Shown in pieces: positions 30,076 through 59,589 of a DNA stretch of 64,000 bases (the first letter of the stretch is position 1; each line of letters opens with the position of its first letter). Position numbers and translations under genes: made by a program. The notes under the pieces were generated by a model. The model saw only the letters and a list, made by a program, of their open reading frames with translations, was not told the origin of the DNA and did no database searches. The stretch comes from Marsupella aquatica (taxonomy: Eukaryota > Plantae > Marchantiophyta), in contig OZ316897.1 of assembly GCA_973895155.1 (NCBI GenBank), positions 23,287,455 to 23,351,454 on the forward strand, given 5' to 3'.

Positions 30076-33000
30076 CTATTGAACTTGTTCGTGAACAAAA
30101 TGCCATTGAATGTCAATGTGCTTGGTTTTCGCATGATGCTCAGGATTAATGGTCAGAGCTAACGCCGGTTTATTGTCGCCATAGATGACCACTGTGTGCA
30201 CATCAGGTGAAACAACTTGAAGTTCATGAAGTAAGCGCCGTAGCCACACCGCCTCCTTACAAGCAATTGAGTAGGCAACGTATTCTGCCTCGGTAGAGCT
30301 GGTGGCAATTAATGGCTGTTTGCGAGATTTCCAACTGATAGCCCCGCCTGCAAGTTTAAAAAGATAGCCAGAAGTAGACTTGCAATCGGTGGAGTTACTA
30401 GCATAAGATGCATCAGAGAAACCTTGAAAATTGAGAGAATGTACTTCAAGTCCCAGAGATGGTGTCAACTGATAGCGAATGCCAAGATTGAGAGTATGAT
30501 TGATATAGGCCATGATGTTGCGAATGCAGCTGTGATGCTCTGGTGCAGGATTATGTGCAAAATGTCCTAATCGTGCACAACGCTCAGCAATGTCAGGCCA
30601 TGTCCATACAGCCAGATACATTAACAATCCCACCATGGATTGGTAGTGATGACACTGATCAGGAGTCGCCTGCATAGGACTAGGCCGAAGATCATCAAGA
30701 CCCGTGGAAGGAGCTGTCATGGGTGCAGCATTTTCCATGTGAAACGTCGAACAATCTTTTGAGCATAGACATTTTGAGCAATGTAGAGAACACCAGCAGC
30801 ACGATTGCGATGAATAGTAAGACCCAAATATTTCGTAAGTTCTCCCATATCCCAAACCTCGTATTTAGACACCAGCATGGCCTTCATTCGAGCAATACCT
30901 TGCTTAGTAGGAGAGAGGCAAATGATATCATCAACCCAGAGAACTATTATATCCCCATTCTGATGTCGTAAAACGCATGGATCAGATGGAAGAGGAAAGA
31001 AACCATTTCGAGCAAGAAACTCGGTAATCTCAATGTACCAAAGGCGTGGTGATTGACGAAGACCGTAGAGGGCCTTCAGAAGGAGCCAAATTAAAAGAGC
31101 ACCATGAATGTCATAGGTCTCATATCCAGGCGGTGGACAAATATAGATGGGAGGTTGGCCTGCCATAAGTGCGTACAAAAAATCAGTAACAACATCAAAG
31201 CAATGAGCCTCAAGGTTGCCAGAGACCACGAGTGCCATGAGTAATCGAAAGGTCTCCGGACAAACTACGGAGGCAAAAGTATCGTGAAAATCTTCCCCCG
31301 GGTGTTGTTTATCCCCTCGAGCAACAAAACGGGCCTTATGAATCCCTGACCGTTTACGAGAATACATCCATTTAGACAGTAGCAAACGTGCACCAGGAGG
31401 AAGAGTAGTGAGCTTAGCCACGTTTAACTTCTGTAATTGATTGAGCTCAGTGAGCTCGGCAACACGCCATTTATCCACATCAGGTCGAGAGAGTGTCTCC
31501 CGATGTGTTTTAGGGACATCATCATCGGCTGAAGAAAAAAGCGCCGCTGAATAAGAGTATACCAGAGATGATGGAAGATGTGCCAGCATTGTATAGGCAT
31601 TCATTGTGGCATTGTACCGAGAAGGAGGAATCCCCTTATTTGTCCGAGCAGAGCGACGGAGCTCCGAGGGCGTGGTAGCAAGAGCTGCTTCAAAATCATG
31701 TTGAAATTCATCACCAGATGGATTCCTGATTGGCGGTGCCATTGTGACAAGCGGAAGTGGAATCGGAATCACAAGATCAGAAGCAGAGTGATCAGTAGAC
31801 GAGATGACAGCATCCAAAACAGGTGTTATTGTAGACTTGGATGGCATCGGAGGTCCATTAGAGAGTGGAGAACTAGTACCACTAGCCGCAGGCGCCAAAA
31901 TTGAAGCAACCGGAGTCGGAAGAGACAATGGTGACTGAAGAAGAGGCAGAGGTGACTCAGAAGATACTAGAACAACATCCAATGTTGAATCCGTAGCCGG
32001 AACATCGGAAGAAGAGTCCTCATAGAGTGTTGGACAGTTCTCGGGTGAAATAGCCAGGAGTCGAGGCGTTTCATCAAAAGTAACATAGGCAGAAATGGTG
32101 ATCAAATTTTGCCGTGGCATCCAAATCCGATAATTCAGACCATCATCATACCCAACCAAATAGCCTTGTTGAGCACGTGGCTCGAACTTCTCCCCTCTGG
32201 GCCATGTTTCAGGAGGAATGTGAACATATGCTACTGCTCCAAAAACTTTCAGATGACCAAAATTGGATATCTCAGGGAGTGCCATGACCTTTCGTAAACA
32301 TGATATAGGTGAGACAAGGTCCGAATGAGCCGTCGTAGGAAGATGATTGGTAAGATAGACCGCAGTCCTAATTGACTCGGGCCAAAGTAGAGTTGGTAAT
32401 TTTGAATCCAAGAGCATAGCTCGGGCCTTCTCCGTGATGATACCATTTGATCGCTCGGCGATGCCATTCTGAGTGTGATGGTAAGGGGCCGAGTGTACCA
32501 TGCGACTACCCTTCTCCGCAAGAAAATTCTGAAACAAAATGCTGCCAAATTCGGTGCCATTATCACAAAAAACTTCTGAAATAGTCGATGAGTACTGATT
32601 GGCAATGGCCGCAAAGAATTGTTGTATGATAGCAACCGATTCACCCTTGTTATGGAGACAGGATGTCCAGCGATAGCGGGTATGATCATCAGTGATTAGA
32701 AGAAAATATTTCATACTACCAATGCCTAGAGAAGACATCGGTCCACACAGATCAAGATGTATTCGCTGAAAAGGTTTGGAAGCACGAGTGTGTTGTTCTT
32801 GACAGATTATACGAGCAGACTTGGCCAGAGCACAGGCATCACATGATGTAAACAGAGCAGAATCAGTAAGTCGGATCCCCTCGCTCTGAATGAACTGTTT
32901 CACACCGTCAATGTGTAGGTGCGCCAAGCGCCTATGAAGAGTATTGATATTGACAGATTGAAGAGAGATAGTACTGTTATGATGGTCATTAGCAAGAGCC

Positions 33001-34360
33001 AATTGAACATGGAAAACCTTAAGGCCATCAACCTTTTGAATACGAGCAAACTCTTGACCACTAGGAAGAAGTACAAATTTGGAGTGCCAGCCTTGCCAAT
33101 ACACACCCCGTTGTTCAAGAAGATGTTCAGAGATTGTGTTGAGAACACTTGTAGGCATATAGCGTACATGATTTAGACGAAGAGGCCGAAATGTTTGTCA
33201 GTGCATTGGACATGCAGATCAATGTTACCGTATCCCGGAGATATGATTGACCCCGCCCCGGTATTAATGGAGATAGGATCAACAATGTATTGCTGTAACA
33301 ACTTTTCATTATTGCAAAAATGGTGATTTGCCCCTGAGTCAGCAATCCATGTATCCTGATCAATGGTGAATGCGGCTGCTGAATGAGCTTGATGCGCGAA
33401 CTGAACAAAATTAAACACGTCCAGCAACAATGATTCGATTGGAGTGGGAATTGAGGTAGATGCCTGAACATTGTTGACACCTCTTAGCCGCTCCTGTATT
33501 CTCTGCATTGTGATAGTATTTGGTTGCCATCCCGGACGACGGAGATGAACGTATTTGTAGTAGCACGTCTCTTCCCGATGTCGGGGCAGACGACAGTATG
33601 GACAGATCTCCTTGCGCGGTGCAGCATTAGAAGGAGCAATGGAAGTAACAATGGAAGATGCCATAGCCACTTGTAGTGTAGGTGGCTCACGCTCAGTCTT
33701 ACGGCGCCATTCATCCTTCGCTTCAAAGATGAGAAGATCTAGGGAAGGTGCATTATTAGGATCACGGCGCATTAGCTCCCGCTTTGAGAACGCCCATTGA
33801 TCAAAGTGTCCATCCATAATATGAATGAATTGCATAATTTGAACTGTAGGATCGATTGTAATCCCAGCAGCAGTGCAACGATCAATGGCTTCACGATAAG
33901 AAATGCCAAACAACTCCATCTCTTCCCCACGATAATGTAGCTTCACAAAATGAACCCAATTATCATGTTTCTGTAGCAAACCTTGAGGTTGATACGTCTT
34001 CTTTAGATGATCCCAACACTCTTTAGCCGTAGTGATTGTGGCTAAAGAAGTCTGGATATGTGGTTTGCACGTAGAAAGAATGAGCATGCGCGCATGAGCA
34101 CCCTGTGCAGTGTAGGTCTCCAGACGCGCCTGAAAGTGGTAATCTCGTTCATCAACATCTTGTATCGGTGGAATAGCCATTCCGTCCACAAATTTCCAAA
34201 CACTACCAGCGGCTAAACTTGCAGAAACGAGCATCTGCCAAGATTCATAGTTGGAGTTTCCATCGAGTTTTGGAACGAAATGACTAGTATCGCGATAAGA
34301 GAAAGACATGATTTCAGATAGTTGAACAAGAGAGAAGAATTCTAGCAGGAAAGAATGCAA
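30076..34360 (-). pseudogene. Copia gag-pol polyprotein, disrupted
   Basis: Gag (KLDGNSNYESW), protease WIADSGANHH, LHRRLAH..CDAC, integrase (IHLDLCGP, DNGTEF, QNGIAER), RT (HKARFVARG, LLKALYGLRQSPR, WVDD), RNase H (FSDASYA, STEAEY, KHIDIQWHFV). Split by a stop near 33173 and a frameshift near 30750. Confidence 0.95.
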
Positions 34361-35149
34361 GTCTTACACAAATGGAATGGTTCCAAGAAGAATCAAAAAA
34401 TTCTAGGCCCATAACCTGTGATTCGTTAGAACAAAGACACAAAATGTGCAAGACATGAGAGCGTACACGAGAGCGCTAGGAAAAGCAGTATTCAGTATTC
34501 CGTAGATGAACTGCAACTCCCCCAAAGGGCAAAGATAAAGGGCACGATCAACCCCGCAAATAGGAGAGCCCAAGCCAGGGCGCGGCAGAGAACTCAAACC
34601 AAAAACAAAAGCACGTCGCCCCGCACGTCGCCCTTGCTTCACATTGTGGCAAGTGGCAAGTGATGGAGTGCGAATTGCAAAAGTGAAAATGTAACAAGCT
34701 AAAGAACTGCAGTAAAAGTAAAAAACACAATAGCCTACATCTAGACGGAGAATGACGAGAGGAACCCCGTGAGGAACCAGACATCAGATCCGGTCGAGCA
34801 CAGAAGAGAACAGGGCATTCCCTGTCACACCATCCAACAGTCTGTTCATATTTGAACTTAACCTTTCGAGTTAAGTATGTCAATGTAATTTTTTTTAAAA
34901 CAAGTTGAACTCCGAAATAGACATAAAGATCATCACTAAAGCACTTGGAAAGGAGTTTAACTTTCAATTTCAATCATGGGTATGGACATTGGGAGTCATT
35001 GGTATCTCAGATAAACATACAAAATTGGCACCATAACCAACTTACAAGGTTGGCAATAATTTCAGGGAGACTTGCCAACTTTTCAAAAAAGCCAAGTCTA
35101 TAAAGACATGATATCCAACCTTATCGGGGTAACATGACTGTGCCACTGA

Positions 35150-38043: not shown

Positions 38044-39346
38044 GATCATCTCTCCTATGTGAGGGTTGGTGCAGGTGTTCCGGAAGAAGCCATTCTTCAT
38101 TGATGGTCCGGGGAACGACCGGAACTCTTTGTCAGGCAAGGTCTTCCTGGTATCAACCTTGGTCTTATTGCCTATCGGCAAGCCAAACACTTCGGCAATC
38201 ACCTTGGGAGTAAGATAGAAATCCTTCCCATATATCCTCGTGCAATTGGTCTCGGGTTCCCATGACCCTACGAATTCTAATAGGTCTGAATCCGGTACCT
38301 CCGGCTTCAGCCATGGTAATCTTACAAAGGCCTCTAAGCCGGATCCGGCCATGAAGCCTTGGTACTTCTTGGTCTGCATGGCCGTAAAGCATGCATCCTC
38401 CTCCCGTGCAAAATGTAGTTGCACCTCCACCGGTAGGGTTGCCGCCCAGCCTTTCCAGGTGTCATCCCTGGTTGGAATGGCATTGATGGGATCGACCTCC
38501 TCCTCTTCGGCTTCTCCCTGCCTCCTGCTCTGCTGCTCGGCTGGCTTCCTTGGTGCCGCCGACCTCGTTCTTTTTGCCGGGGTGGCTTCATCGTTGACGG
38601 CATCCTTCCTCTTCATCTCTGCTGCCGTGGAGGTTTCTCCTAGTACCGTTGCCGGGGTCCACCTTTCCGTGCTACCCTTCAATTCCCAGTGTATGTCGTT
38701 GCAATTCTTGATGGCCTCTCGAATGCCGATGATTCTGTCTTCACAAAATAGAAGATCGTCGAGCTGATTGGAAGTAGGAGTCCACAAGAACTCGGCGTTG
38801 ATGAGTTCGCCTCCTAAGAAAGCCGTCTTCTGCAGCTCCCACAATCGAGCGAGCTCCTGCCGTTCTCGAGCTGCCCTTTCTGATTCTTCGTCCTCGTAAG
38901 TCTTGATGTACTCAGTTGCCCGTTTGAACAGGCATCCCCAGAAATGTGCCGCTTGATTGACGTTGCTCATACCCTCCTTAGGTCGATCATCGGTATCTAC
39001 TCTCTCCCGGAGTGCTTGCCTAAGCAGCTGACAGTAGTTGGCCTCCCGTAGTCGTCTGCCTAGTTCGTGCTCGCAAATGAGCCACCATCTCCTGCAAGCG
39101 CTCCTTACCCCTCTCCTCTTCCGGTCCTTTCTCCCGTTGATCCTTCCTAGCCGCCGACGCTTAACGCGCCCTAACCCTAATCGAGTTTTCACCCCTAGTG
39201 TCCTTACCTCCGGCCTCGGCCCGGGTTCCATAGTCGCCCCTAATTGTTTATATTTTCCTTGTTTTGTCCCTATACTAAGGTGTTTCTAGGGTGCACTCCT
39301 GCTTTACCCACTTAACTGGCCGAGTGATTCCTGGCTAGGCATCACA
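38044..39346 (-). mobile_element. Family A copy 3, truncated (5' 1.3 kb only)
   Basis: Begins tgtgatgcctagccagg on the minus strand at 39346. The ORF matches copy 1 until ...PHIGEMI, then breaks into unrelated sequence. Confidence 0.9.
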
Positions 39347-39349
39347 GTA

Positions 39350-41269: not shown

Positions 41270-42340
41270 CTACGCAATAGATGGCAGGGTGGGCAGAGTT
41301 GATGCGAGGGGAGTACGGGAAGAAGGCTGCAGTGCTATCTAGGCTCCCGATGCAATGACGTTTGAAGAATGGTGTCGGGATCGGTTTACTTTGTATTGTC
41401 ATGGCACAACGGTCTGTTTCGTGCAGTCATGGCAAGAAGACCATGGAACTAGGATAAACCCTCAACCGTAAATGGTAAACCCTCAACCGTAAACATGAGG
41501 AGCCCTGGTTTGATGCCATCAAGGCTCGTGATGAGATGGCCGCACAATGCGGGGTTGTGATGAGTTGGCATTTGGAGGATGGCAGGATTGGAGTTGATCC
41601 CTTGGTGTATGCAAGGCCAAGGGACGGAGCCACAAGGAACAACGTCGGTAAACCCTAAACAATGGGGAGGGAGGGTGGGCATAGTTGATGCGAGGGGAGT
41701 ACGGGAAGAAGGCCGCAGTGTTATCTGGGCTCCCAACATAGTGATGTTTGAAGAATGGCGCGGGGATCGACTTACTTTGTAATGTTGGTTCCTTTGTATT
41801 TTCATGGCGGGACGGTCTTTTTTGGGCACTCGTGGCAAAAAGACCACGAAAAAGACTGCAAAGACCGGGCATTGCGATCGCTGGGCTCCACAAAAATGTA
41901 TATATGATGTTTGAAGGATGGTGCGGGGATCAATTTACTTTGTATTTTCATGGCACGACGGTCTTTTTTGGGCTGTCGTGGCAAGAAGACCATGAAACTA
42001 GGGTAAACCCTAAACTATAAACGATAAACCCTAAACCATAAACGCAAGGAGCCTTGGTTTGATGCCACGAAGGCTCGTGATGAGATGGCTGCACAATGGG
42101 GGGTCGTGATGAGGTGACATTTGGAGGATGGCAGGATTGGAGTTGATCCTTGGTGTATGCAAGGCCGGGGGACGGAGCCACGAGGAACAACGTCGGTAAA
42201 CCCTAAACAATGGGGAGGGAGGGTGGGCATAGTTGATGCGAGGGGAGTACGGGAAGAAGGCCGCAGTGCTATCCGGGCTCCCAACACAGTGACGTTTGAA
42301 GAATGGCGTGGGGATCGACTTACTTTGTAATGTTGGTTCC
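41270..42340. repeat. Degenerate long tandem repeat (about 540-bp duplicated unit) with taaaccctaaa motifs
   Basis: About 41430-41790 is repeated at about 41975-42340. The sub-unit gatgtttgaagaatggYgYggggatc recurs four times. Confidence 0.75.
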
Positions 42341-42662
42341 TAACAAGAAGCCTTAAGGGATGAGTCCAAAGCCTTATTTCTCTTTTCAAAATCTTCATGA
42401 TATTCAAAAATGTGTACCAAAAAACCACCAAAAAATGGTATGTATTTTCCAAACTAGACTCAAGAGAATTTTACCACCAAAATCTAAGCATATCTTATAT
42501 GATATTCTCACAATTGTATAAACCTTGAAATATGCACTTTATAAAAGTAGTCAAAATCAAACTCATCGATCAGAGTTTAAGTCAAACTCAAAGTTTTACA
42601 AAATATAACCCAACTTAACCCCAAGTGGTTTCAAATGCTACAAGTCCCCCTATTTACCTAGT

Positions 42663-45600
42663 CTAATCCAAAAGGACCGCTTCCCCTTCCTCGGTTCCGG
42701 AAGTCCCTGCCATCAATTCTGGAACAATTGTGGCATCGTCAACCACGCTATCCTCTTCGGCCTGAGGAATGTCTTCCTCACTATCCTCATCCGTCTCCCC
42801 CTGTCCGTCTTCCTCTTCAATGTTATCTGCAAGGTTAAGAATCCTCCCTTTCAACACACTGCTCTGTCGCTCGTCAATCTCAATGGCAATGCAATGTCTG
42901 CCCATGGCCAAGGAGGAGGTTGTCCCAGTCCCTGATCCTGAACAAATATCCAAAACCCAGTCTCCAACCTGACTAAAATGACTCACTTCCCAATCTAACA
43001 ATGCACGTGGTTTCTGATAGACATTCACTGCCTTGTTATCCCCGTTGTGTTTCAACTTCTTAGTCACAGCTGCGCATACAACCACATTGTTCCTGGATTT
43101 ATTTGTGTCAAAATTGAAGTGCTCCAATGACCGTTTACCATCTGGGCTGTGAAAGCCAATTGTAAAGCACTCAAAGTTGTTGTTCAATCTTGGCCCACCA
43201 GCATTCTTCACATTATCCTTAACCCTGAAAAGTCACAAAAAGTCAAGGAGTCATTTAAACTTAGAAACATGGATCATGAAATCACGAACAACTAATAATT
43301 GTTTTTTTCAAAGACAAATATTTCTTACCACACACAATTCTGGAACCCTCCATTACACTCCGCTTTCAAAACGGTCTTGATGGCCTCATATTGGTCAAGG
43401 CTGTGGTGAATGATAATACGCCACAACTTCGCAGTAGTAGCCACCTTGAAAGATTGGACCATTTTTGTGATCTCCTCAATTCCCCATCCAGTAGTGTCCT
43501 CATGAAGACATCCAGGCAATGCAAACCCGTAGGGGATATCCACTAAAGCTAATGTGTAAGCCCAACCCGGAACCACCTCGTGTAATCGCTGAGCATCATG
43601 AGAAAAATATCATAGTGCACATCACCAAACTCTGGATGCTCAAAAGAATTTGGATGAAGTTCCCCCTCTTGGGTTTGCCGACTAGAAGTCTTCATGGATA
43701 GCCAATTTTGCGCTTGCACAATATACGCATTGAATTTATCCGGGAATGACTTGAGATATTTGCCTTCCTCATCTCCCTTCTTTTTCTGGGAGGTGGTATC
43801 TTTCTACAAAAGGGAACCTTACAATTAGAAACAAGGATTCCAAATTCAATGAATTCAAACAATCATTCGAAGAAAGGTGACAAAATCTTACCCATGTCTG
43901 GAAAACAGGTATGAAATTCTTAAGCACATTGTCTGTGCAATGCTCAGGGTACTTGGTTTTACAACCTGACCAACTCTCAAACACGTGAGGAAGGCCTTCT
44001 GCACCTGCATATGAAATTTGTGTCGAGTAAATTCGTGACCCATTTCCTGTAAAGAGATTTCTTTAGTAAGAACTCTCTGTAACACTGGGCAAATCATATC
44101 AGGATCTTTCAAGGCCTGCATGTGTCTCCACTCTGTTAATTTCATGTCCTCATAAGGCAATTTGGCATCTCCAGACTTAGAAACTTTCTTCTTGCCCTTG
44201 TCTCCTTTTTGACCTTTGATCTCACACATCTCCCACTTGTCACAAATCTGCCTCACAAATGACCACACAAGATCTTGTCGGAATGCCAATTGAAATAGGT
44301 TATCGTTGGCATTAAGAACCTCAGCATCCTTTTGCACACCCCAATCCTTGAGATTGATTTCAGTAGCACACTCTTTCTTGAAATCCTGGTTGGACGACAA
44401 TCCATTCTCCACAAATCTCATGTGAATATAATTTACTCTCTGGATTGTCGTCATTTGTTGTCGAAATTCAGAATCAATATTGTGACTCCATGCCAAGTTT
44501 CTTGCCTCTTGCACACTCAATCCCGCAAATATCCAAGATTGCACTCTCCAAAATGCCTTGTTGTTAGGGAACTGAAGAGCAAGGTCTGCTTTGGCACAGG
44601 CTGAATGGTTGGCCCCAATCACATAATAATGGTAATCAGATTTCCTTGAAAAATCAAAGTGTCACATCGTCGGCTTCGGCCTTAACTCAGACTTCAGCTT
44701 AGACGGACACATCCCTCGTAAATCTGAGGGTTCGGGCAGGAAGGGAAGCACGTAATGCACCTTATTCTCGTAAACTAGCGCTAAGTGCGCATACTGCTAA
44801 ATACGGACACCTCCTAGGTATGGTTTGTGTTCCGCCGCCGGAACGTACCTTAGTCAATAGCAGGATCGACCCCGGCTTAAGGGCTTCTAAGCCTTCATGC
44901 TGTCCGCCTTCGATCCGGATTCGATGATACAGGTCCTCAACCCGTGCTTGCAACCACTTACCTGCAGGCTGCACCCTATGCACGTCTCGGGTAGTGCGTT
45001 CGGCCTAGCGCTGCCACCCATATACGAGAAACCCACACACATACACGCGCACATGCATACAATCTCCACATGATGGAACCCCGGGGGGAGATCTCCGCCG
45101 CCCAGGTTATCCAGGTCGAGAACTATCGACCTAGGAGGTGGGCGTCGTACTTCGCTAAGAAATTCCATGAAGAGATGGAGCGGCGAAGGAAGACGCTGTA
45201 CATTGGCGGGAAGGCGTATTTCGCTAGCCACATCGAGATCATTCTTGAGTGGTACGCCCGGTTTGATCGACGAACCCTTCCCCGTGTCAACATTACAAAG
45301 CTGGTCCCAGCTAGGTGGGTTTTCCCGGCCTTGGAGAGACGGCCCCAACCCGAGGCCCGAAGTCCAGCGGACACGCCAGCTTCACCCACCCCACCTCCAC
45401 AAGTAGCTGTAGTCGTAACCGAAGAGGTACCGGATGGGTCGGTTGTCGCAACCGTTGATGCGACCCAACAAGTCGGGCTAAGTACAGAAGTCGGTACGAC
45501 GGAGGTCTTACCCGAGCCAGGGTCTCCCAAAGACCCACCGGTGGCTATTTCGGAGAACCGGACATTGCTGTAGGAGGACACTCCAGCCCCTTCCAACGTT

Positions 45601-47346
45601 ACGTCCCCAGGGCTGGACGTCACTGCCCCGGCCCCCGTGCGTGTTGATGTCTGCCCATGCCCAACTCTGGACAGGCACAACCTGGACCACCCGGAACTCT
45701 TCGTACCGGGTACCTTTCTAAACGGGCTTCTGGGAGATTTCTCTCATCAAATTGCCCGGGATACCGGGGAGTTCATGGCCCGGAAGGTAGCCTGTTTCTT
45801 CAATCAGGAGTTGGTTGCCGCAGTAAAGGCAGGTCGGGCCCAGTCAGAGGCCCTTCAGAGGATAGAGCGGTACCGGGTGGAGTCCGTGTACCTAAAGAAC
45901 AAAGTTGCAGCTCAAGAGGCTAAGCTTCTGCAACTACGACCCAAGGTTGCAGTCGCCGATAAGTTGTTAGCAAAGGCGCACGCTCTTACCGCCCTAGCCG
46001 AACAGGCCAAAGCTGGGAACGAGGCCGAGATTACACGACTCCGGAACCAGATTGACAGTTTGAAGAATCAAACTGTCACCTGGCATAGCGACCCGCCGCC
46101 AGTCCGAACCTGAATTCCCCCTTATTGCCTAATGATGTCCTACCCATAATGATTACCTAAGTACTGTTGTTATGCTAATAATAGCAGCCTAAGACACTCC
46201 TAACGCGCGTGCTAAGCGCAGTTAGACCGAATCACTCATTAACCGCCGTACCGGTGGCGTCACACAAAGTCTTGCCTAGTAGCACACTCCTTCGGATCCA
46301 CCAAGAGGACAAACGGAGCTGCAAGTGGACTGGCACCTACAGTCTTCATCCGCAAGGTCAATTGGGTCAAGAAATATGGTTGGATGTGTCAAACCTGGTA
46401 AATGGGCAAGCCCCTAGCCTTCTCTCTCACTGGAGGGTAAAGTTGACCAATGTCAGCCGTCACGGTCTCCTCTTGAACACCACATCTTCCTAGAATCTCC
46501 TCCTGGTACAATACCCGTGCATCCATTGACATTGATTGAGCCTTTTGCTCCAAATGCATCGGAATTTTCTCCAAAGTCTTCTTTTTTGACTTTGGAGCAC
46601 TGGGCTCGACAGGCTCAGGAGTCATAGCAGGTCGCTTCTTTGAAGAAGTACGAGTTCCAGTCGTACCTTGTGCCGACCCACCAGTCAAAGCCGTTCCCTA
46701 GGATGATCTACCAACTTGAGATCCCCCTCCAGATGCTGCTGCTTCACAGGAGGTTGTAGGCGCTACCACGGTCAAAATGTCATCGGGTAAAATGCTAGGC
46801 CTAGATCTAGAAGGAACACCGGAAGCCCCAGATTTGGGTGGACAACTTACCCCCTTCTCTACCGATCTTTTTCGGAGAATCTCTCGCAATTTTTGGATTG
46901 CACTCTTTAAAGTGCTAGCGTGAAATTCGAACACAAAACCGGAAATCTTTCCCACGATGTCGTGGTAACGTTCCTTACTCGAAAGAGACTTGACAGTCTC
47001 AATGATGCTATCAATGTCCTCATCGAGATAGCAGGTGGCAGCCATTCTGGAAAACCTCTCCACATCCACGACAATCAAAGTCAACGTTTCCTTTGTTGTG
47101 ATCAACATGTTCACAACTTTGTCGCCCCGTCAAAATACATCAATACGGACGTAATTTACCCACTGTAATGCCCCCGATGGAAGCCCCTCAAATACACACA
47201 ACATTAGGAAGGGCTTCTTCCATGTTTCCGTCCCTAAGGAAATCGTCCAGGATGAGTTGTGGAAGTCCGTCAAAGGATGGCGCGAAAATATGTCATCCAC
47301 CAGCTCTTCCTACGACATTGTCATGTTTCCGCCTGATCTTTAAAAC
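42663..47346 (-). pseudogene. ParB-like domain plus beta-class N6/N4 DNA methyltransferase fusion gene 1 (spliced, disrupted by C insertion, stops and frameshifts)
   Basis: ParB-like region YQV*HIQPYFLTQLTLRMKTVG..PFVLLVD..YYVIGANHSACA is in frame after removing 44660-46264. MTase motifs LALVDIPYG, CVW|VKDN..NNFECFTIGF, NVYQKPRALL, GDWVLDICSGSGT..SLAMGRHCIAIEID. GT-AG introns at about 43891-43819 and 43328-43225. The 5' end is approximate. Confidence 0.8.
44660..46264 (-). mobile_element. Family C copy 2 (1605 bp, internally deleted, with an inverted internal segment), TSD CAAAG
   Basis: CAAAG at 44655-44659 and 46265-46269. Termini match C copy 1 in reverse orientation, while about 45064-46085 matches the C ORF in forward orientation. 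Confidence 0.9.
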
Positions 47347-47987
47347 CTGAAAACATACCACAAAATCAGTCCACTTCAAACCCAACCTGCGAGACAAAGT
47401 GCCACAGAACCAAAGAATGTGCCAACAAATGGCTACTAAAGCCGTGTCCTTACGGATCTAACAACGCTCTCGGCCACCCCAGGACTCCTATCATGAATTC
47501 ATGAAGGGAGTCTCCCTCTCGCACCGACCTTCATGAATTCATGAAGGGAGTCTCTTCTCTCTTTGCATGTACACCTCGGAGATTCAGAAGGGTATTGAAA
47601 ATGGGGTTTGGAGGGAGGGTGATGTGAAGAAATCACCCAGGGTCTAAATTACTACCTAAAATAAGGTTGAAATGAAGCGCAACCATGACAACTTGCGACA
47701 CGTTGCCGATGAGTGCTGAAAATGACACGAAATTGGACAGCGAGATTGTTTTTCACTCTTTTACAAAGGAAATCCAAATGACATCGAGTGAAAATGAATG
47801 GGCTGCCCCGTGTTACTTGGTTATACATACTAATCATGGATCAAGCGCGACTTAGTAAAATTAACACCAAATCATGATAAATCAATGTTTTCGGGCCAAT
47901 TATTCATGAATATTTTGGGGTAATAACGAGAAAAAGTTCGTAAATTTCATGAATATCTGATATTTTTGAAGTTAAGAAGTCACAACA

Positions 47988-48123
47988 TGTGACGCCGCCG
48001 GTACGGCGGGTAATGAGTAATTCGGTCTAACCGCGCTTAGCACGCGCGTTAGGGGTATCTTAGGCCGTTATTATTAGCATAATGACAGTACTTAGGTAGC
48101 CATTATGAGTAGGAAATCATTAG
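47988..48123 (+). mobile_element. Family C 5' terminal fragment
   Basis: tgtgacgccgccggtacggcgg...attagcataatgacagtacttagg matches the first ~135 bp of C. Confidence 0.85.
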
Positions 48124-48175
48124 TATCAGCCTATTCATTAAAAGTGTATTTTCTTTTGTTCACAAATCAGTCCTG

Positions 48176-48255
48176 AAATGTACACTTTTATGTCCCCAAA
48201 TGTACACTTTAAGAAGCCCAAATGTACACTTTTTGATACCTAAATGTACACTTTA
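48176..48255. repeat. Four spaced copies of aaatgtacacttt (candidate subterminal repeats of a DNA transposon)
   Basis: The 13-bp motif is repeated four times at about 22-bp spacing, downstream of the HAD gene. Confidence 0.6.
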
Positions 48256-48495: not shown

Positions 48496-49535
48496 CTAAA
48501 CAAAGTGCTCCTTACAATATTTATTTGAGCACGTGCCCTTGTCTCCTTTACTATCTACCCTAATGTCACGGTTGCAACTCCCTTTATCTTCAGGGAGATG
48601 AAATTTGGTGGTGTTGTTCCTAACTGCTATAATCTCCCGCAAAAAGTGTCTGGGATTTTCTCTATACAGACCTGAATATTCCCGTCCTACAAATGATCTA
48701 GCAAGTGAGGTGACAAGTGCATCGTCAAGTTCCACCGCAGGACGTAAGCTACATATACGTTGCTTCACAGCCCAAGGAATCTCATTGCTATTGAGGTCCA
48801 GCACACTATGCCTATACTGTGACTTCCAAATTTTTGCTGCACATCTCTTACTAAGTTGATCATAAGTAATCTCATTTTTTGCCTTGTCTCTCTTAATGTG
48901 CAATAGAGACCACTTTGGAGAGTTTAGGAGAAGATAACAACGAATGTCACTTGCATGTGACAGTTTCTCAAGACATGGCCAAAGAATTGTTAGAAGAAAA
49001 TTGTCTCCACGATTGGCATGCGTGTAGGGCACTGGAAATAGTCCGGTCATGTCTGGGTTGGCAAATGCCTTCAAGGGGGAGTCATCCACAAGGAGTGTGT
49101 TGGTTTCATCATATAGATTTCCAAATGCACTCCATACCACCCGAAAATCCTTCAATAGCACATTTGCCTTTCCATTTGTAATGTCACACCTTTGAATGCC
49201 TGTGTCAAAGGCTTCCACCTATGTGAATACAAACTTCAGTTTCAACCGCTCCTCAACAGTGAACATCATGTTCAACATTTTCACTGTCCGCGGCATCCCA
49301 GCACATGTCCAAATTGCAACGTCAAACCGGTCAAAAACCAACTTTAGAAACTCATGGAACCCTGGCCTCTGTGTATACATGCGACTAGTTCCATTTGATC
49401 TATCCCAATGCACTCCATTTGGGGTCACAATGTTTCTGGATTTGCCCTTGCTTTGGAATTCAAGTGAATCCCAAAGTATTTTGTTAAGATCCAAAATCAA
49501 CAACTTCCGCTTGATGGGACAAGGTCTCGATTCTG
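48496..49535 (-). pseudogene. FCP1/NIF-like HAD-superfamily phosphatase with one in-frame stop
   Basis: KLLILDLNKIL, RPGFHEFLKLVFDRFDVAIWTCA, LLKDFRVVW, NTLLVDDSPLKAFANP. ORFs 49219..49665 and 48496..49218 are separated by a single TAG. Probable splice acceptor ttgcag near 49533. Confidence 0.8.
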
Positions 49536-52354
49536 CAAGTGCAACAAATACAACTCTTAGAAAGAAAACCAAATTTGAACTTTGGACTGAGATTGTCTCA
49601 GTCCAAAAATACAAGACAATGACTAACAACAAAGAAAACCTACATACCATTTTTAGAAGCCCCAAAGAGCGTAGGTGGATATCGAGGCTCTAATTGCTGA
49701 CCGCATTCTGTGAGACCGAGAAGTATTTTAGATTGGTATGAAAAAATGGAAAGTCAGACGGTTTGATCTCAGTCTGAAAAAAGAGATCCGTATTCATCAA
49801 TAATGTCAACACCCAGCTCCTCTTGGATTTCAAAATTGACATCTGAAGTACTTTGTTCTACCCAATAAGGTGACGTCCAAACAGGAGTTATCAATCCCAA
49901 TTCTCCTCTCTTATACTCCTTCCTGTTAAGAATCGATGGAGCAGCATCCAATGAAACTTCTTGGCCTCTATTTGGCCCACTTTTCCACACATAACATCGT
50001 GCATCACGTTCAAGTGACCTCCATCTGGTTGATCCAACTCTATTCCCTTTTTTCTTTGAGAGAGGAAGGACAACTGGACTTCCCGAGTGTGAACGAACAA
50101 AAACCAATTTGTCATCAGAAGCTGAAAAGAGTGTGTCAGGACAAATTGAAGCACCTGCCTGGTTGTCAACAGTCGCTGATGCACGGGCTTCTGGGGTCAT
50201 GGGAATCTCACGTACTTCGACAGCCGTCCCGGGAATCAAATTTTGGGTGTCAGCTTCATTCGAATTGACCTGTCTGTCTCCACCGTCCGCGACCAAATTG
50301 GTTGACGAACGATTTTCAAATGTATCAATGTCAATCGGATCACCAATTCCGTCCGTTTCTCGTTGCACCACATTTGGATTGAGACCATCCTTGTCCAAGT
50401 TGTCATCAACCTCAACTTCATAGGGTTCCAAAGGGACGTCATCTGCACGTGATGAAGGGCGTGGTGCAAGACCAAGGTTATCATCAACATCGTAGGGTTC
50501 TATGCTTTCACTTTGACCTACACGGTCATCCAAATTCTTTGCATACGCCACCTCTGATGCCCCATCATCTTTGACTGACTTAGCGCCCACTTCTTCGGAA
50601 TTATCAGCTGATTCATGTTCGGTAGAAACATCCGTAATAGTGGGTTTCCAATGCCTAGAACTCCCACCACGAGGATCCCAATTTTCCTTGATTGAGGGGA
50701 CCCTCTCGCAAAGGAATGAAGCATACGCTTCCACAAAGTGTCTCTCATCTTGAGAGTCATAATAAACAAAGCATTCGCGTTGCACCAAGAATGCTGTCTT
50801 CATCACTTGACCACCCGAGAAAAAATCAAGAATCAAGTCTCCAGCTTCTGACAAGGATTCAATAATCCTCTGTATCATCCGCGTGGGTTTGGCATGTGGA
50901 TTCACCCAACCACCACGAGCACCAACTATCTCAAATCGAGGGGCCATGTGCAAAACCTTGGTCGCCTCTTCTGGGGTCAGCATCATTTTTAGATCTTCGG
51001 GTTTTGACACGTCGTCTGTGTCAACCTTTGCCTTCCCAGTGTCAATCTTGGTGACCTCAAAATCAGTATCTTTTGAACCAAAAAAGAATTTTGGCTTTGG
51101 ATGATTGGGTTTGAAAACATCATTCCAATTCACATTTTCATCTCGAGAAATTCCTGCGAATATAACTTCTTCAATTCCGCCTCCCCAACACGAATCAAGC
51201 GGGTGCGGTTGATCCTCTCGAGAATAACTCCCATACTCAATGTGAATGGTGAGAGATTTCTCTTGTCCCAATTTTCGAAGTGAGCTTAGGACATTCATTG
51301 CAAGAGGCCCCGAATGAACAGTTATGGCTACAACGATTGTAAGATTTCGTGGTAGCTCCACAATGTATTGCAGAAAGACCAAAACTTCTGCTTCCGTCCA
51401 CAGCTTCTGGTGATCTCGACTGAAGTCAACAATGGCAAGTGAGCACGTTGGAGATGATTCTTCTATTGCTGGTGGATCAACTGTTTTCATTAGATTGTCA
51501 CTAAAGAACGTGACCCACGGTTGGCTCCGAGAATGTGTCCCTCCGCCAAACTTCTGGCAATAAATGTCATCAAGGCGCATCACCAGAGCTATTGGCAAGA
51601 TTGCACTCTCCCTGGTATGATTTGGCTTCAACAGATTTGACAAAAAAACTTCACCAGCCGCTCTTCTGCATCTACTGAATTCTGCGTCAACACTCAACAA
51701 TGGCAGAACCTCTACAACTTTCTTCCAATCGGTATCCGAAGGGAAATTCCTTGGATCCTTGCCGAAGTAGTACTCCTCAATGAGAGACTTGAGCTTCCTC
51801 ACTTTTTTCACATCCTTCGCAAGCTCCTCTATTGAGGGTATGTCAGATTTATTTGTGGCATCTTTCTTCAGCAATGCCTTTCCTGACTTCACTTGTGTCA
51901 GGATTTTTGTGATGTCTTTCTGTGAGATCAACTCACCATCAAAGGGACGAAACATGGCAACGGTAATTGCTTTTTCGGAGTTGTTATTTCCTTCCATCCC
52001 AGCTCCATCAGGAAGTTTCCCATGCAACCACATCTCACAGACTAACCGCCACAACTCAAAAAGATCGTTGTCCGCAAAAAGTAGCCAGTATACATTTCGC
52101 AAGTCCTTCCTGCCCATAGTCATTCTTGCCAGAGCCAACCAATCCTACAATCCAAAAGGAAAGCTAGTCAGTTATCCCCAACGCAAGGGTTGGAAAAAAA
52201 GGATTCTAATGTGCGATAATAGTATTGGATTCGGATGGTCTCAATCAAAAACAAAACTCGTACTAAACATTCCAAAAGTTCCAATACTCTTTGACAAATC
52301 GTGTCGGACTGAGACCATCCGAATCCAAAATAGAATTACTCTCTATGGTAGAGA

Positions 52355-55300
52355 TGTGGTGCGTCCCATGGCTCCCTAAACCCAAGAAACCCCCCAGCTC
52401 AAGCCGATTCCCGCAGGTTTCGTGCTTGGCGAGGCCGTTTCCGCGGCTTAGCGGCATGGGACGCTGCTAACCTTCTACTACTACTATTAACATTTTACAC
52501 ACATATACTGGACAGATCCTTCATCGGGTCATGAGATACGTAGCCGGCCTAATATAGGCCTTCCCCTGTCTTCCCCTGTCTTCTTGTTAGGTATGTTTGG
52601 ATTCCGCCGCCGGAATGATCCCCAATAGGCTTGGTTAAGCCGCTAAGACCTCTCTCAGCTCGACACATCCAACTCTCACTCCCCTGCTTACTTTCCTTCC
52701 TTCTGTTGATGTGGGCACTCTTCACACAAGTTAATGCGACACACAAATAGCAAAATGACTCATTCTGACTGAGTCATACCATGCACTTGCCATACAAACA
52801 GTACATCTCATACACAAGTTCTGCGAACTAAGCCGTGAGGCCAACTCTATTCAGCTCTTAGGCATGAGGAAACATGAATATACACAAGGGTCACTGTATG
52901 ACTAACCGAGAGCTTCTCGTACTACTTGATCCCAGCCCGGCTGGTGCAAACTAAAAACTTGCTAAAGAAGAGGCCCTGAGCTCCCCGCTGCCCAGGTACT
53001 TATCCTGGTAGTGGATCCGCCATTCTTTGCATCGTAAGCCTAATCTACCTGACAGTAATCTACTTGCCCGAATCTACCTATGTACAACAAGGCAGGAGCA
53101 CAAGTGTTGCTCCTACCAGTGGGACCGCAATCCCACTAAGCTAAGTGTCAGGGCCGCTCCTGGTTCTGATCCTAATCCTAAACGTGGAGATCCGTGCCCG
53201 CCCTGCCCACTCACGCCTCCTCCCTCCACGTCCGCCCTCCCTAAAAGGAACGGCGCCCTTGCACCGTCACGACACCGGTGGTGGATCCTCAATGGACGCC
53301 CCCAACACTTCCTCCTCAGCCACTACCGTTGGCCCGCCTACTGACAGATTACCTGCCCTTGACCGAGTCAACTCTCCATCGGCCTGACTGGGTCCACCTT
53401 CGGCTTCAGCCTCAACACCGGCCTCGGCAATACCCACGGCTTCGGCCTCAGCCACTCCCACGGCTTTGGCCTCCCCTTCCCCTAGGGTAGTTGGATCCTT
53501 AGCCGTGACCCTGTCTGGGGTCGGTGCTGGGTCTACCTCCTTGATCACCACGGCCTGTGAAGTCGTATTACTCCTTGACCCTGAAGGTTTCCGCTTCTTC
53601 TTCGTTGGTGGCTCGGCAGCTGGTCCCTTCCCCTTCCCACTTACTTCCGGCACTGGTGCAGGTGGCGCGGCTTGTCCTTCGGCAATTACCACCCCTGGTA
53701 ACTGGTTTGTCCCAACGGGAGATGGACCTGCTGCAGCTAAGCATTTAAATACTGCAGCTTGTTTCTTCAGCCGCTCTGTTTGGTTGTCGGCCCGCCGCTG
53801 TAGGTTCTCCATCTTCCTCGTGATTTCCTCCAACTCCTCTTGGGTTTCATCCAGGTCCTTACGTGCCCCCTCCAGCTCGTTTTTGGCCTCCTCCTGCTCC
53901 CTGTGGGCTTCCTCCAATTCCTTCTTCAAGGTAGCCCTCTCCTCCTGGGTTGCTCTTAGCTCCTTGTCGAGCTCTGCAATGATGACAGACTCCATCTGGT
54001 TCATCTTGGCGTAAGTCTGTTCGAGCATCTCGTCCTTCTCCCTTAGGTCGGCCTTGAAGCTGGCCGTCAGGGACGCAAGCTCCTGCTGCAGCGCCATAAT
54101 CCCTTGATAGGATTTCCCTAACTCGACCTCCTTCTGCTCAAGGGCTCCGCGGATTTTCTCGAGCTCCCCTTTCAACGCCCATTCCTTTCTTTGGGTCTCC
54201 GCCATGGCCCGGCTGTTGGCTGTTATGTGGGCCTCCTCTGTATTCTTCAGCTCTTGCTTCCACTTCTCCCTCTCTTTGATCGTGTCGGCCAACTCTTCCT
54301 GCGTCTGAGTCAGTTTATCCTTGATATTCTGATTATCAGCCTGCGCGGCGTCCAACTGCCCCTGCATGATGTTCAGCTCATGTCGTTTAATCCGCAGTTC
54401 ATCCAGGGCTTTCTTGGCCGCCCTTAGATCTTCAATCTCAGCTTCCATCCTCCTAAGCCGTCGAATGACCTCGTCCTTCTTGCTTCTCTCTAAAGCCACC
54501 GCTTCTTCTAATTGGTGCTTCTCCAACTGCTCCCTATGGAAAAAGGGTCCTATCTCCAACTCCTCTCCAAAGATGCCGAGCGCAAGTTCCCCACACATCT
54601 CACCATACTCCATGGCTCTATTCTTAGCGTAGGTGGAGTAAGTAGAAGTGATCGGCATCGCCCATCGTGGCCTCTGCTCCCAAGCCGTCCTGCGGATCTC
54701 TTCAATCGTGGCTAGAGGTTTGCTTCCTTTTTCGGCTAGCCGCCTGATGTCCTCCGGCCAATCTCCTCCTGGTAAATCCTTTTCCTTAGCCAGGGCGGCC
54801 TCTTCCTCCTGCTTGATTCGCTCCTGAAATTCCTGCACCGTCTGTTTTATGCCGTCGAAGCTCGGGGGAGCAACATCTGGTGGGGGAGACTCAGGGCTAC
54901 TCTGCTGGTTGGGGTCCCCTCGCACTACCCTTGGAAGTGTGGGGACAAACCGGCCACAGGTCCTTACTCCTGGAACGTGATGGTCCGACCCATAGCCGGA
55001 ATTATCATGGCTGCAGTCCTCCACTGCCTCCTCTACCTCTTGGACGTCCGGCTTCTCCCTCTCCTCTTCGTCGGTAGGAGCTTCAGGCAATTCTGCCTCA
55101 GATTCGGAGCTTGAGGTTCCCACGTACATTCGAACACCTGGCTTGGATTCCGGCCTGATTCTCTCCTTGTTTCCAGCAAAGGGGTTTTCTCTTGTGAGCC
55201 GGTGTAGGCCTACCTCTGTAGTAGTGTCCTGCATTGTTGCCGTTGCCGTTGTTGTTGCCGATGCCGATTTCTTTTCTTTCTCCAGTAGTTTCAGCAGACT

Positions 55301-56981
55301 CTGCATGCCTGGTTGCTGCATCGGCAAGTCTTCCTTCCTGGGCCTAAACACCTGCTCGATCGTAGGACTAACAGGTGGTTGAGGTTTCTCAGCCAACGGC
55401 CTCGGCGTTGGAGCTTCCTCGGGTGCCCTTACCTGCAGGGGAAGTACCGGGGCAAAAGTCTGACCTCTGGCATACCGGCACAACAGCGGCATGTGATAGC
55501 CAAGCCGCGACACGCTCCCCATGCCGATTACCTGCTGCTCCTCCTTTAAGATCTTCTTCAATTGGTTGAGGAGGTACCCGTTGTAGTCCCGGCTTGGGTC
55601 TGGCCTTTCTGCCAGATAGACCTGTGCCTTGCCGATCTCTGCCCTCGGCAAGTTACAATGCATGGTCACCCGCAAGAAGTCGATCATCTCTCCTATGTGC
55701 GGGTTGGTGCAGGTGTTCCGGAAGAAGCCATTCTTCGTTGATGGCCCGGGGAACGACCGGAACTCCTTGTCAGGCAAGGTCTTCCTGGTATCAACTTTGG
55801 TCTTATTGCCTATCGGCAGGCCAAACACTTCGGCAATTACCTTGGGAGTAAGATAGAAATCCCTCCCATATATCCTCGTGCAATTGGTCTCGGGTTCCCA
55901 TGACCCCACGAATTCTAATAGGTCTGACTCCGGTAACTCCGGCTTCAGCCATGGTAATCTTACAAAGGCCTCCAAGCCGGATCCGGCCATGAAGCCTTGG
56001 TACTTCTTGGTCTGCATGGCCGTAAAGCATGCATCCTCCTCCCGTGCAAAATGTAGTTGCACCTCCACCGATAGGGTTGCCGCCCAGCCCTTCCAGGTGT
56101 CATCCCTGGTTGGAATGGCCTTGATGGGATCGACCTCCTCCTCTTCGGCTTCTCCCTGCCTCCTGCTCTGCTGCTCGGCTGGCTTCTTTGGTGCCGCCGA
56201 CCTCGTTCTTTTTGCCGGGGTGGCTTCATCGTTGACGGCTCCCTTCCTCTTCATCTCTGCTGCCGTGGAGGTTTCTCCTAGCACCGTTGCCTGGGTCCAC
56301 CTTTCCGTGCTACCCTTTAATTCCCAGTGTATGTCGTTGCAGTTCTTGATGGCCTCTCGGATGCCGACGACGCTGTCTTTGCAAAACAGAAGATCGTCGA
56401 GTTGATTGGAAGTAGGCGTCCACAGGAACTCGTCCTTGATGAGTTCGCCTCCTAAGAAAGCCGTCTTCTACAGCTCCCACAATCGAGCGAGCTCCTGCCG
56501 TTCTCGAGCTGCCCTTTCTGACTCCTCGTCCTCGTAAGTCTTGATGTACTCAGTTGCCCGTTCGAACAGGCATCCCCAGAAATGTGTCGCTTGATTGACG
56601 TTGCTCATACCCTCCTTAGGTCGATCGTCGGTATCTACTCTCTCCCCGAGTGCTTGCCTAAGCAGCTGACAGTAGTTGGCCTCCCGTAGTCGTCTGCCTA
56701 GTTCGTGCTCGCAAATGAGCCACCATCTCCTGCAAGCGCTCCTTACTCCTCTCCTCTGCCGGTCCTTCTTCCCGTTGATCCTTCCTAGCCGCCGACGCTT
56801 AACGCGCCCTAACCCTAATCGGGTTTTCACCCTTAGCCTTACCTCCGGCCTCTGCCCGGGTTCCATGGTTGCCCCTAATTGTTTATATTTTCCTTGTTTT
56901 GTCACTATACTAAGGTGTTCCTAGGGTGCCTTCCTGCTTTACCCACTTAACCGGCCGAGTGATTCCTGTCTAGGCATCACA
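52355..56981 (-). mobile_element. Family A copy 4 (4627 bp), TG...CA, TSD AGAGA, inserted in intron 2 of ParB-MTase gene 2
   Basis: AGAGA at 52350-52354 and 56982-56986. Nearly identical to copy 2. Its ORF (56866-53267) has one TAG at 56468. Confidence 0.95.
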
Positions 56982-58721
56982 AGAGAAATGCATACAAAGT
57001 AATCACATTTCTTACCTGAAATTTTTGGTTGTCTTGAGCATTTGTTTTGTTGTCGCCATGTTTTGGTTTGTCTGGATTTCCACATTCAACAAACTGCCGC
57101 CTCGCATGGACAACTGTATCTTTAAAGCAAGACTGAAACACCATCGTGCTATTGATGGCGTTCGATCTCATGGAGTGCTCAACAAGAATTGAAGACGGTG
57201 TGCGATCAGACAATATTCTGGATTTCCTGAATTCTAACTTCTTGGCCAACTGGGTGAGCTTGGCATCCTTTGTTGCCCAATCACGAATCCATCTCGCAGC
57301 TCTCGTAGAGTGCTGACCACTAACGGCTAGAAATTGGACCTCGCCCTTTTTCACTCCGGCCAAAAAATCCTTCCGGTCCGACTCTGTATTCTCAAAGTGG
57401 AGTACCTTTCTTCGCTCGACGTTAAAAGGAATCAAATCAGCGACATGTGGCTCATGCCCAGGTGTTTTGATCATGGAATCAGCAATGTCTTGCACATGAT
57501 CAAAATTCATCATCCGATAGCATAGTCTCGCTGGTGCGGCAAAAATACTTTCAACTGGGATCAGAAAAATTTCGTTTATCCCAAAAGTATAGTACTGCTC
57601 CATTTGTTGAAGAACTTCATTCCCTTCTAAGACGTCTTTCTCCTCTGGAGCATGTAGCCTATCACCCTCATCTTCAGCATGTAATGAAAAATCTACAGGA
57701 GTTGAATTCACAACTCCGGTGTCGGTTTTTTGTTTCTTCTTCTCCCTCGACTTCTTCTCGGCTGGAAGCTTCTTCTTCTCGGTTGGAAGCTTCTTCTTCT
57801 CGGCTGGAGCCGTGATCTTCTTCTCAACTGAAGTAGGTTTCTCAACCAGAAGCTTCTTCTCCCTCTGCTTTCGCTTCCCTGCCGCTCTATCCATGGTTGT
57901 TGCTGCAGTAGTTTGTGTTGTCTCCGTCGTAGTTGCTGGAGTTCCTTTGGCTGGCGTAGACTCAATTATTTTCTATGGTTGTGTACTTTTCCTCAACTTC
58001 ACCAAAGACTCTACCCATAGATTTGCTTTTTCCAGGTCAAGCGTGTGTGCAAAGGCTAGTGCCTTGGCGATCCAAACATTTGAGTCTGGTGACACCAGAC
58101 CTGCTTTCTCAAGCAAATTGTTAAGAGTCCATGTGGATGGAAAAGAGAACTTTGATGGGTTGTTTACAATGTTGAGTTTCAAATAAAGAAACCCATAAAA
58201 AATGTCCAAAGGAAGCATTCCCTTCAGTCCTCCAATAATCTTCTCCTTTGTGTAGGATTTTGGAAAGAATCCCATCGACAACACACTTAATTCCCCACTT
58301 GCATACCATTCCACATTGAACTCGGCCGAGAAAGCCTTTGTGGGGAGCTGCAACTTTGCCCACCTCATCGTGTCCGACACCTCTACAATGATAGAATTCA
58401 TTCCTCTTCCTATCATTCCCACAGAGACCACGGGTCCGATGACCAATGTTTGGTTGTTGCCTGTCCTGATCTTGACACATAACACTGGATCCTGAATGTT
58501 AAATGAATTCAGGCGGAAGTTAACTCGCGAGAACTCAAGTCCCTACCGAAATCCTGGATCGCGGTCCTCCAAAATGAGCCCATCGTCGCAGTCTGCCTCT
58601 GAAATGGCAAGAGTTGTATTCACCAGATCACTCTCTGCATAGGAGAGTGAAAATTCATATTAGACTTCAAATCCATGAAATTTGTTTTAAGAAATCACTG
58701 TCAAAGTGAGATTGAAGGCTC

Positions 58722-59295: not shown

Positions 59296-59589
59296 CAACT
59301 TAAGATGCATGAATAAACCTCTGGGAACTTACTTTGGACTTGAGATTGAAATTCTTGGGAATCCCTAAGCGCTAGGGCCACAAGATCACCGACAGAGGAG
59401 AGATCCAAGTCATCAAATTCTTCGGCGAGAAGGACAATGACGGTTTTCTTGGCAACTTCCATTTTTAGGAGTGACACGTGGCAGGATATACTGAGGACAC
59501 GTCAAGATGGGCAAGATCTAGGGCGTTGCAGCAGATTAGGGCAAGAAGGCAATTAGGGCAAGGGCAAGGGATAGCGGCGGCAGCCAGCC

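Follow-up and report, generated by a model that had tools for sequence, protein, structure and literature searches.

A dead copy of a probable transposon family with predicted ParB-methyltransferase fusion proteins in the liverwort Marsupella aquatica

We found a broken gene combining a ParB-like domain with a bacterial-type DNA amino-methyltransferase in the liverwort Marsupella aquatica, within a 64,000-nucleotide stretch of contig OZ316897.1 (assembly GCA_973895155.1, positions 23,287,455 to 23,351,454 of the forward strand; hereafter the window, with coordinates counted from its first letter). The reading that we favour, and hold to be probable, is that this focal gene is a dead copy from a transposon family whose protein, when intact, likely binds the element that encodes it and is predicted to write N6-methyladenine (6mA) there. 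Binding, activity, target base and benefit are what we infer for the intact protein; the focal copy itself has lost the proposed function.

Results

The focal gene and its lesions

The gene lies on the minus strand, with its start codon at 47324, preceded by an AG acceptor at 47346-47347, and its stop codon at 42663. Its parts and immediate surroundings are:

42342..42662, no strand: probable left end of the element with its 3' flank, apparently beginning with AAC where a neighbouring repeat is cut off
42663..43224, minus: last exon, with W-x-K, QKP, the S-adenosylmethionine (SAM)-binding motif DICSGSGT (42950-42927) and an acidic tail; no in-frame stop
43225..43328, minus: intron 2, GT-AG, 104 nt, phase 2, interrupting a Trp codon
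43329..43803, minus: exon with the catalytic motif IV, DIPY (43540-43529), and a one-base frameshift near 43602
43804..43891, minus: intron 1, GT-AG, 88 nt, phase 0
43892..44659, minus: 3' part of the long exon, with IGANHS (44619-44602) at the ParB box II position, a ParB-type helical DNA-binding region and a frameshift near 43978
44660-46264, no strand: inserted solo long terminal repeat (LTR), TG...CA, 1605 bp, with a 5-bp target duplication (44655-44659 and 46265-46269), interrupting the ParB-like domain
46265..47346, minus: 5' part of the long exon, with the start codon, an N-terminal domain, a low-complexity linker, the onset of the ParB-like domain and four in-frame stops (codons at 47312, 47132, 46700 and 46391)
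47490..47547, no strand: two spaced palindromes TCATG-N4-CATGA (at 47491 and 47531), 40 bp apart; candidate binding sites
47988..48123, no strand: LTR fragment of the same family as the inserted solo LTR, where the element appears to break off

Both introns (43891-43804 and 43328-43225) coincide with joins in the Calypogeia gene model P0013. The position of intron 1 is also the endpoint of related single-frame open reading frames (ORFs), and 43 of the 49 DIPY-bearing loci among the 80 loci examined share the intron 2 position to the codon; these 80 are the best of 113 related stretches and come mostly from few assemblies. The last exon is 64-72% identical to P0013 and to the related locus L001, and the 5' part of the long exon 34-38% identical to P0008, P0001 and L001; for the N-terminal domain upstream of the low-complexity linker, no recognised fold was found. 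A preliminary description, made from the sequence of the window, had proposed a spliced eukaryotic gene and named its motifs. The introns and their matching joins in P0013 bear this out, and every motif lies on the minus strand where it had been placed; the gene is real, and what that description missed is its broken state. With four in-frame stops, two frameshifts, an LTR insertion and no adjoining transposase, the focal copy is a pseudogene.

Contigs joining 44654 to 46265 without the LTR occur in public sequencing runs, in four of four runs of one set and three of four of another (5 of 6 runs overall). In run X3, the gene is tiled by contigs that reach depths of 533-621, lack the LTR and show 2-3% differences, next to neighbouring contigs of depth ~20, although contig depth in these runs does not equal copy number. 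The deep contigs carry extra bases at both frameshift sites and are thus free of the frameshifts, a pattern that is that of a collapsed repeat family, to which the focal gene therefore belongs. Among the run rows listed, the stop at 47312 is the only one of the four seen altered. Differences with A or T in the window and G or C in the run dominate (in X3, 102 versus 45 of the reverse kind across 42300-48200, LTR included), as expected from deamination of 5-methylcytosine (5mC), which suggests that this copy decayed like methylated DNA.

The methyltransferase domain

The last exon matches Pfam PF01555 (N6_N4_Mtase) with 37.1 bits (cut-off 26.7, E 4e-9), and DIPY (motif IV) precedes DICSGSGT (motif I), the order of the beta class. 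Because the exons in the window cannot fold as one chain, folds were predicted on relatives, the methylase part from P0013 and the ParB part from L001 (63% identity to the window copy). The P0013 model, with a predicted local distance difference test (pLDDT) score of 87, has CcrM as its best fold match (E 1e-13), and its nearest folds (CcrM, M.BceJIV, M1.HpyAVI and MboII) all belong to 6mA enzymes. Rotifer N4CMT and PvuII are also among the fold matches (E 8e-10 to 9e-10), and profile comparison gave E 1e-21 for CcrM versus 5e-9 for N4CMT. Motif order, PF01555 score and the CcrM-like fold of a relative uphold the earlier assignment to the beta-class amino-methyltransferases.

All 47 motif matches among the loci read DIPY; of 47 aligned rows, 44 open motif IV with Asp and two with Ser. 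Across the focal family the D, P and Y of this motif, QKP and GxG are nearly invariant. The 36 pattern matches among 149 representative hits divide into DIPY (10), DFPY (6), DVPY (6), DAPY (3), DPPY (3) and others (8), with DFPY, DVPY, DAPY, DLPY and DPPY occurring in deeper family members. In N4CMT the first Pro of motif IV contributes through its main-chain carbonyl (PMC10406627; here and below, published systems are represented by passages of the cited papers), so Ile at this position would be compatible with catalysis. The predicted target is an exocyclic amine, adenine N6 appearing more likely than cytosine N4.

The ParB-like domain

For the ParB part of the focal gene, no profile match was obtained in Pfam, PHROGs or NCBIfam; DUF6551 matched weakly in 6 of 45 rows of this part. 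The L001 model (pLDDT 89) nevertheless has ParB, Noc and KorB as its top matches (Foldseek E 8e-6), with phage ParB proteins among the others. Its N-terminal domain superposes on Caulobacter ParB (7bm8) with Z 9.8 and a root-mean-square deviation of 2.3 A over 98 residues, and KorB aligns across 204 residues, DNA-binding part included (Z 9.4); isolated DNA-binding domains reached Z 4.2-5.1 only. The homodimer prediction of the ParB part scored 0.01, which speaks neither for nor against a dimer. The ParB/Srx-like region proposed in the preliminary description thus has the ParB/Noc/KorB type of fold in a 63%-identical relative, and of the profile and structure checks suggested there, PF01555 and both folds gave positive results and the ParB profile did not.

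Transposon context

Related loci carry an ORF for a DUF7869 transposase head-to-head on the opposite strand, in 12 of the 17 loci with at least 1.5 kb of upstream sequence and in all 10 with at least 3.4 kb. These ORFs encode 830-900 residues, match DUF7869 with E 1e-51 and contain conserved Asp motifs. L049 holds a whole 7.6-kb element, in which 37-nt terminal inverted repeats enclose the transposase and the ParB-methylase gene, and L039 has 34-nt terminal inverted repeats around both genes. The ends of both elements read AACAC...GTGTT, and all ends found read AACAC. Several loci share an identical terminus with differing flanks, which shows that the elements are mobile; by termini and layout they are likely cut-and-paste DNA transposons of the Sola1 type.

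In the window, the copy of repeat D11 at 42148-42341 ends exactly at the 42342 edge, while its copy at 41600-41793 continues further, and depth rises ~15-fold at 42342 in run X6. At the other side, an X3 contig continues beyond 47987 with DNA unlike the window. The focal element probably extends from 42342 to a break at 47987, its transposase half missing from the window. Neither a DUF7869 core nor the terminus of the distant (fern) clade was found there. The locus L002, a closer relative, has one opposite-strand ORF without a family assignment. That the gene is transposon-borne, as had been proposed, is supported by the DUF7869 linkage and the terminal inverted repeats of related loci; the family proved to be neither a single-copy host gene nor devoid of the two folds. 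The suggested search for element ends succeeded in part, with terminal inverted repeats at L049 and L039 and no paired target duplication there or in the window.

Palindromes upstream of the gene

The palindrome TCATG-N4-CATGA occurs exactly twice in the window, both times just 5' of the focal gene. Its core recurs upstream in L001 (42 bp apart) and L002 (40 bp apart); the last intron of L001, L002 and L041 holds one further palindrome, and focal intron 2 a decayed look-alike. The distant clade has a palindrome of its own, CGATRC-N3-GYATCG, with 151 matches in 43 kb of upstream sequence versus 29 in the other 271 kb, and 31 of the 50 loci whose upstream sequence reaches 400 bp contain it. The palindrome set thus differs by subfamily, each having its own 5' of the gene, and in related loci the palindromes occupy the interval separating the divergent genes. 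The spacings, 137 in all, fall within 1.5 bp of a multiple of 10.3 bp in 85% of cases, where a uniform distribution would give 29%; the patterns were derived from the same regions in which they were counted and tandem duplication links the spacings, so that these figures are descriptive. CpG ratios of 0.42-0.82 indicated no clear protection of the elements. One locus, L016, has a second array of the distant-clade palindrome (4750-5650) near another terminal-repeat copy at 3282; probably two elements lie there, the one inserted in the other or next to it.

Relatives and selection

Named relatives come from Chara braunii (3 proteins and 8 more), Riccia, Calypogeia, Ceratopteris, Adiantum and Ginkgo, all of them streptophytes, and P0013 matches 410 clusters at 50% identity (E up to 0.001). 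The tree of the ParB part places the window copy with Calypogeia and seven metagenome proteins (100/99) and puts liverwort and fern members into different clades; 8 of the 27 named proteins lacked the anchor motif and were left out, long branches are uncertain, and with no prokaryotic rows the tree names no donor. Median ratios of nonsynonymous to synonymous substitution rates (dN/dS) between loci were 0.041 for the ParB domain (36 pairs), 0.063 for the helical domain (46), 0.034 for the DIPY exon (15) and 0.039 for the SAM exon (20), computed on pairs with dS 0.15-1.0 after segments containing stops were dropped. These values point to strong purifying selection on all four protein parts.

No relative was found in viral contigs with the queries A1 and P0093, in prokaryotic genomes with P0093 (one distant query and exact-word patterns, a weak test) or in phages by tblastn with P0013. 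Against a distant family member, phage methylases reach 26-28% identity at best. With P0013 lacking a phage match as well, nothing points to a recent transfer from phages.

The Chara braunii protein P0062 (1825 aa) contains two ParB-methylase units in tandem and may represent adjacent copies merged. Six deep-branching proteins (P0093, P0114, P0196, P0222, P0155 and P0162) carry DLPY or DPPY, and Cys-rich fingers occur at the C-terminus of some of them; they probably stem from microbial eukaryotes, and the family likely extends beyond plants.

Other features of the window

A second, very distant ParB-like and methylase-like gene lies on the minus strand (49769-52144 and 56977-57972), split by a 4.6-kb LTR-type insertion (52355-56981) with a 5-bp duplication. 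Its motif IV is lost (DFSR), its SAM-side region aligns (profile probability 96%) and its ParB part is weak. Between this gene and a divergent ORF, 31 copies of the palindrome GGATTCGGA-N3-TCCGAATCC (at most 2 mismatches) form two arrays (58724-61441), a head-to-head layout like that of the focal relatives. At 61630-63285 (plus) there is a transposase-like N-terminal part with repeated domains and a weak Transposase_23 match; the Cys motifs that follow resemble the DUF7869 ORFs in a weak alignment (E 0.005), and an LTR-type insertion cuts it at 63286. A NIF/FCP1-like phosphatase gene of the haloacid dehalogenase type (48496-49689, minus; two frames, Pfam NIF above cut-off) lies in a region that is deep in all four runs. 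This gene is likely further cargo of the second element, and such a phosphatase, resembling those of the RNA polymerase C-terminal domain, could affect transcription.

An LTR-type element is present in four recent copies (93-98% alike), at 7922-12595, 25019-29678, 38044-39348 and 52355-56981; it has a single coiled-coil ORF of 1,200 residues, and no reverse transcriptase was recognised in it. A Copia-type retrotransposon with frameshifts lies at 30076-34363 (minus). Among these transposons, an intact-looking single-frame RNA-editing gene of the pentatricopeptide repeat (PPR)-E-DYW type (19063-21963, minus) marks the window as land-plant DNA.

Discussion

A self-marking transposon protein and the evidence against it

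In the mechanism that we propose, a dimer of the intact protein would grip the spaced palindromes 5' of the gene via its ParB-type helical DNA-binding domain, with several copies presented on one face of the helix. The ParB-like N-terminal domain may help loading or spreading, probably not as a classical cytidine triphosphate (CTP) clamp, because the box II Arg is missing. The DIPY/SAM domain would then methylate an exocyclic amine on the element, adenine N6 being favoured, and the mark or the bound protein could keep cognate copies transcribable or transposable against 5mC silencing by the host, as VANC does on VANDAL transposons.

Several results weigh against this account. All transposase-linked loci belong to a distant clade that includes the Ceratopteris protein and shows about 30-37% identity, and in the clade of the window (L001, L002 and L041) no locus reaches a transposase, the contigs being too short. 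The flanks of L049 and L039, whose contigs are collapsed repeats, show no matching target duplication of the kind that Sola1 transposons leave (4 bp), and the window holds no matching second terminus or target duplication. The palindrome spacings are not independent, and 16 of their 31 distinct values (52%) are phased; a count of palindromes in general exceeded every shuffle in no more than 18 of 45 upstream regions, and the upstream region of the window was not above its shuffles (4 versus a maximum of 5). The pairs behind the dN/dS medians are likewise not independent. In the protein, DIPY deviates from the canonical motif IV, (D/N/S)PP(Y/F), and box II reads G-G-[SNG]-H-[ST], with His in 41 of 42 and then Ser in 34 of 42, and without Arg in either register. 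The GxxR Arg is required for nucleotide binding in the ParB folds tested, whose nucleotide preference is unpredictable from sequence (PMC12704722). The focal family, as modelled, has a ParB-like build, yet without this one defining feature of the CTP clamp.

Alternative explanations

The protein could instead be mainly a sequence-specific binder (an autorepressor, an activator of the divergent promoter or a helper that pairs the ends), its methylase fold serving to bind DNA or RNA or acting on the element transcript. ParB-fold proteins such as KorB do regulate transcription (PMC12704722), the palindromes lie between divergent genes, and the second gene of the window, of the same layout but with motif IV lost and a 31-copy palindrome array, suggests that binding can outlast catalysis. 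Against this stand the near-invariance of D, P, Y, QKP and GxG and a dN/dS of ~0.035, as expected of a working active site, and the fusion has no RNA-binding domain; we regard such a mainly binding role as unlikely.

Somewhat less likely still is that the same accessory protein writes N4-methylcytosine (4mC), a mark that would act directly against host 5mC, by blocking it or by competition. Enzymes of the PF01555 domain family have switched repeatedly between 6mA and 4mC, a point that also counts against our assignment of the base. N4CMT and PvuII appear among the fold matches, the palindrome cores of the distant clade contain CG, and the base was left open for a comparable Ectocarpus element (PMC12477816). 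The 6mA enzymes, however, come first by both profile and fold, and the known eukaryotic 4mC enzymes have SPPY as motif IV, whereas the focal family starts this motif with Asp in nearly all rows.

It is improbable that a family of bacterial origin was domesticated as a host gene, like Marchantia DN4MT1, and that the focal copy is a stray pseudogene of it. Introns conserved across distant lineages and strong purifying selection would fit such a history, but terminal repeats with varying flanks, the transposase linkage, the numerous Chara proteins, the separate clades of liverwort and fern members and the many decayed copies speak for mobile elements. That the gene is a contaminant from bacteria or phages, or belongs to an endogenous giant virus, is hardly credible: both domains are of prokaryote type and phage ParB proteins match by fold, but the gene has spliceosomal introns and a nested plant LTR insertion with target duplication, shares the window with a PPR-DYW gene, has no relative in viral contigs or prokaryotic genomes (the latter for one distant query), and its named relatives are all streptophytes.

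Comparison with known systems

The closest design known to us by description is the accessory gene of the Ectocarpus element Sola1-1_Ec32 (PMC12477816), likewise a fusion of a ParB-like domain and an N4C/N6A methyltransferase opposite the transposase, with a protein of about 1,000-1,100 residues as in the focal family and termini that begin with AAC (AACCG), like the AACAC of L049 and L039. Its transposase has its best match in the moss element Sola1-1_PPa, and self-modification was proposed for it in 2025 (PMC12477816). It differs in residing in a brown alga, in a 21.5-kb element, with an accessory gene called Ectocarpus-specific. The likeness was drawn from the description, not from an alignment, and does not imply common descent; among the passages compared, palindromes, motif and selection data come from the focal family only.

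Plavaka elements of the red alga Bostrychia (bioRxiv 10.1101/2025.02.11.637652) bear a PF01555 methylase and a ParB-like domain in PAG2/PAG3, share the best structure, 7BNR, and have inverted-repeat arrays beside the ParB gene, proposed as binding sites like the focal palindromes. There, two genes (methylase plus SET; ParB plus 2-oxoglutarate oxygenase) belong to EnSpm-type elements, whereas the focal family has one fusion in DUF7869 elements. VANC of VANDAL transposons (PMC5735166) is also encoded by its element and has family-specific repeated motifs in introns and intergenic DNA, as here; it induces 5mC loss and is not described as a methylase, in contrast to the focal family, a predicted writer with a prokaryote-type fold.

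Motif IV before motif I, and the fold, are common to the focal family and CcrM, M.BceJIV, M1.HpyAVI and RsrI, and the domain fusion is common to it and phage ParB-N6_N4 proteins (PMC12704722). Unlike these, it has DIPY rather than DPPY, no box II Arg, and introns, and the structural matches are 13-22% identical. Marchantia DN4MT1 and rotifer N4CMT (bioRxiv 2021.02.12.428880, PMC8885841, PMC10406627) are further bacterial-type beta-class enzymes in eukaryotes, but they are host genes that write 4mC (SPPY in N4CMT) and lack a ParB domain. Membership of the focal family among these eukaryotic 4mC writers is ruled out by the Asp of motif IV, the ParB fusion and the transposon context.

In the passages represented here, a 2015 survey of eukaryotic amino-methylases reports that land plants have few of these enzymes, and it lists no permuted ParB-fused clade for them. 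A description of a ParB-methylase fusion in land plants was not found in the literature searched, a weak negative with most subscription journals and Repbase outside its coverage. The design is already published for Ectocarpus and red algae, and the idea of self-marking is not new. New here are the streptophyte range, the compact whole elements, the constancy of the active site under selection, the missing ParB Arg and the subfamily-specific phased palindromes.

Significance

More broadly, and tentatively, we suggest that streptophyte transposons, from Chara via liverworts and ferns to Ginkgo, carry working DNA adenine methylases, which would be targeted by a ParB-type domain loading on the phased palindromes of each subfamily and would mark cognate copies; we give this wider prediction somewhat less than an even chance. 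If true, these proteins would parallel VANC anti-silencing by enzymatic means and be a genuine, local supplier of 6mA to the nuclear DNA of plants; for land plants, the enzymes that write 6mA are an unsettled question. The window copy itself serves only as a pointer to the family, which offers compact test objects: two-gene elements of 7-8 kb with intact-looking frames, a constant active-site motif and subfamily-specific predicted target arrays. If active, the family would represent a second way, after VANC, for plant transposons to alter the chromatin of their own copies; it would also provide a naturally occurring methylase with sequence targeting.

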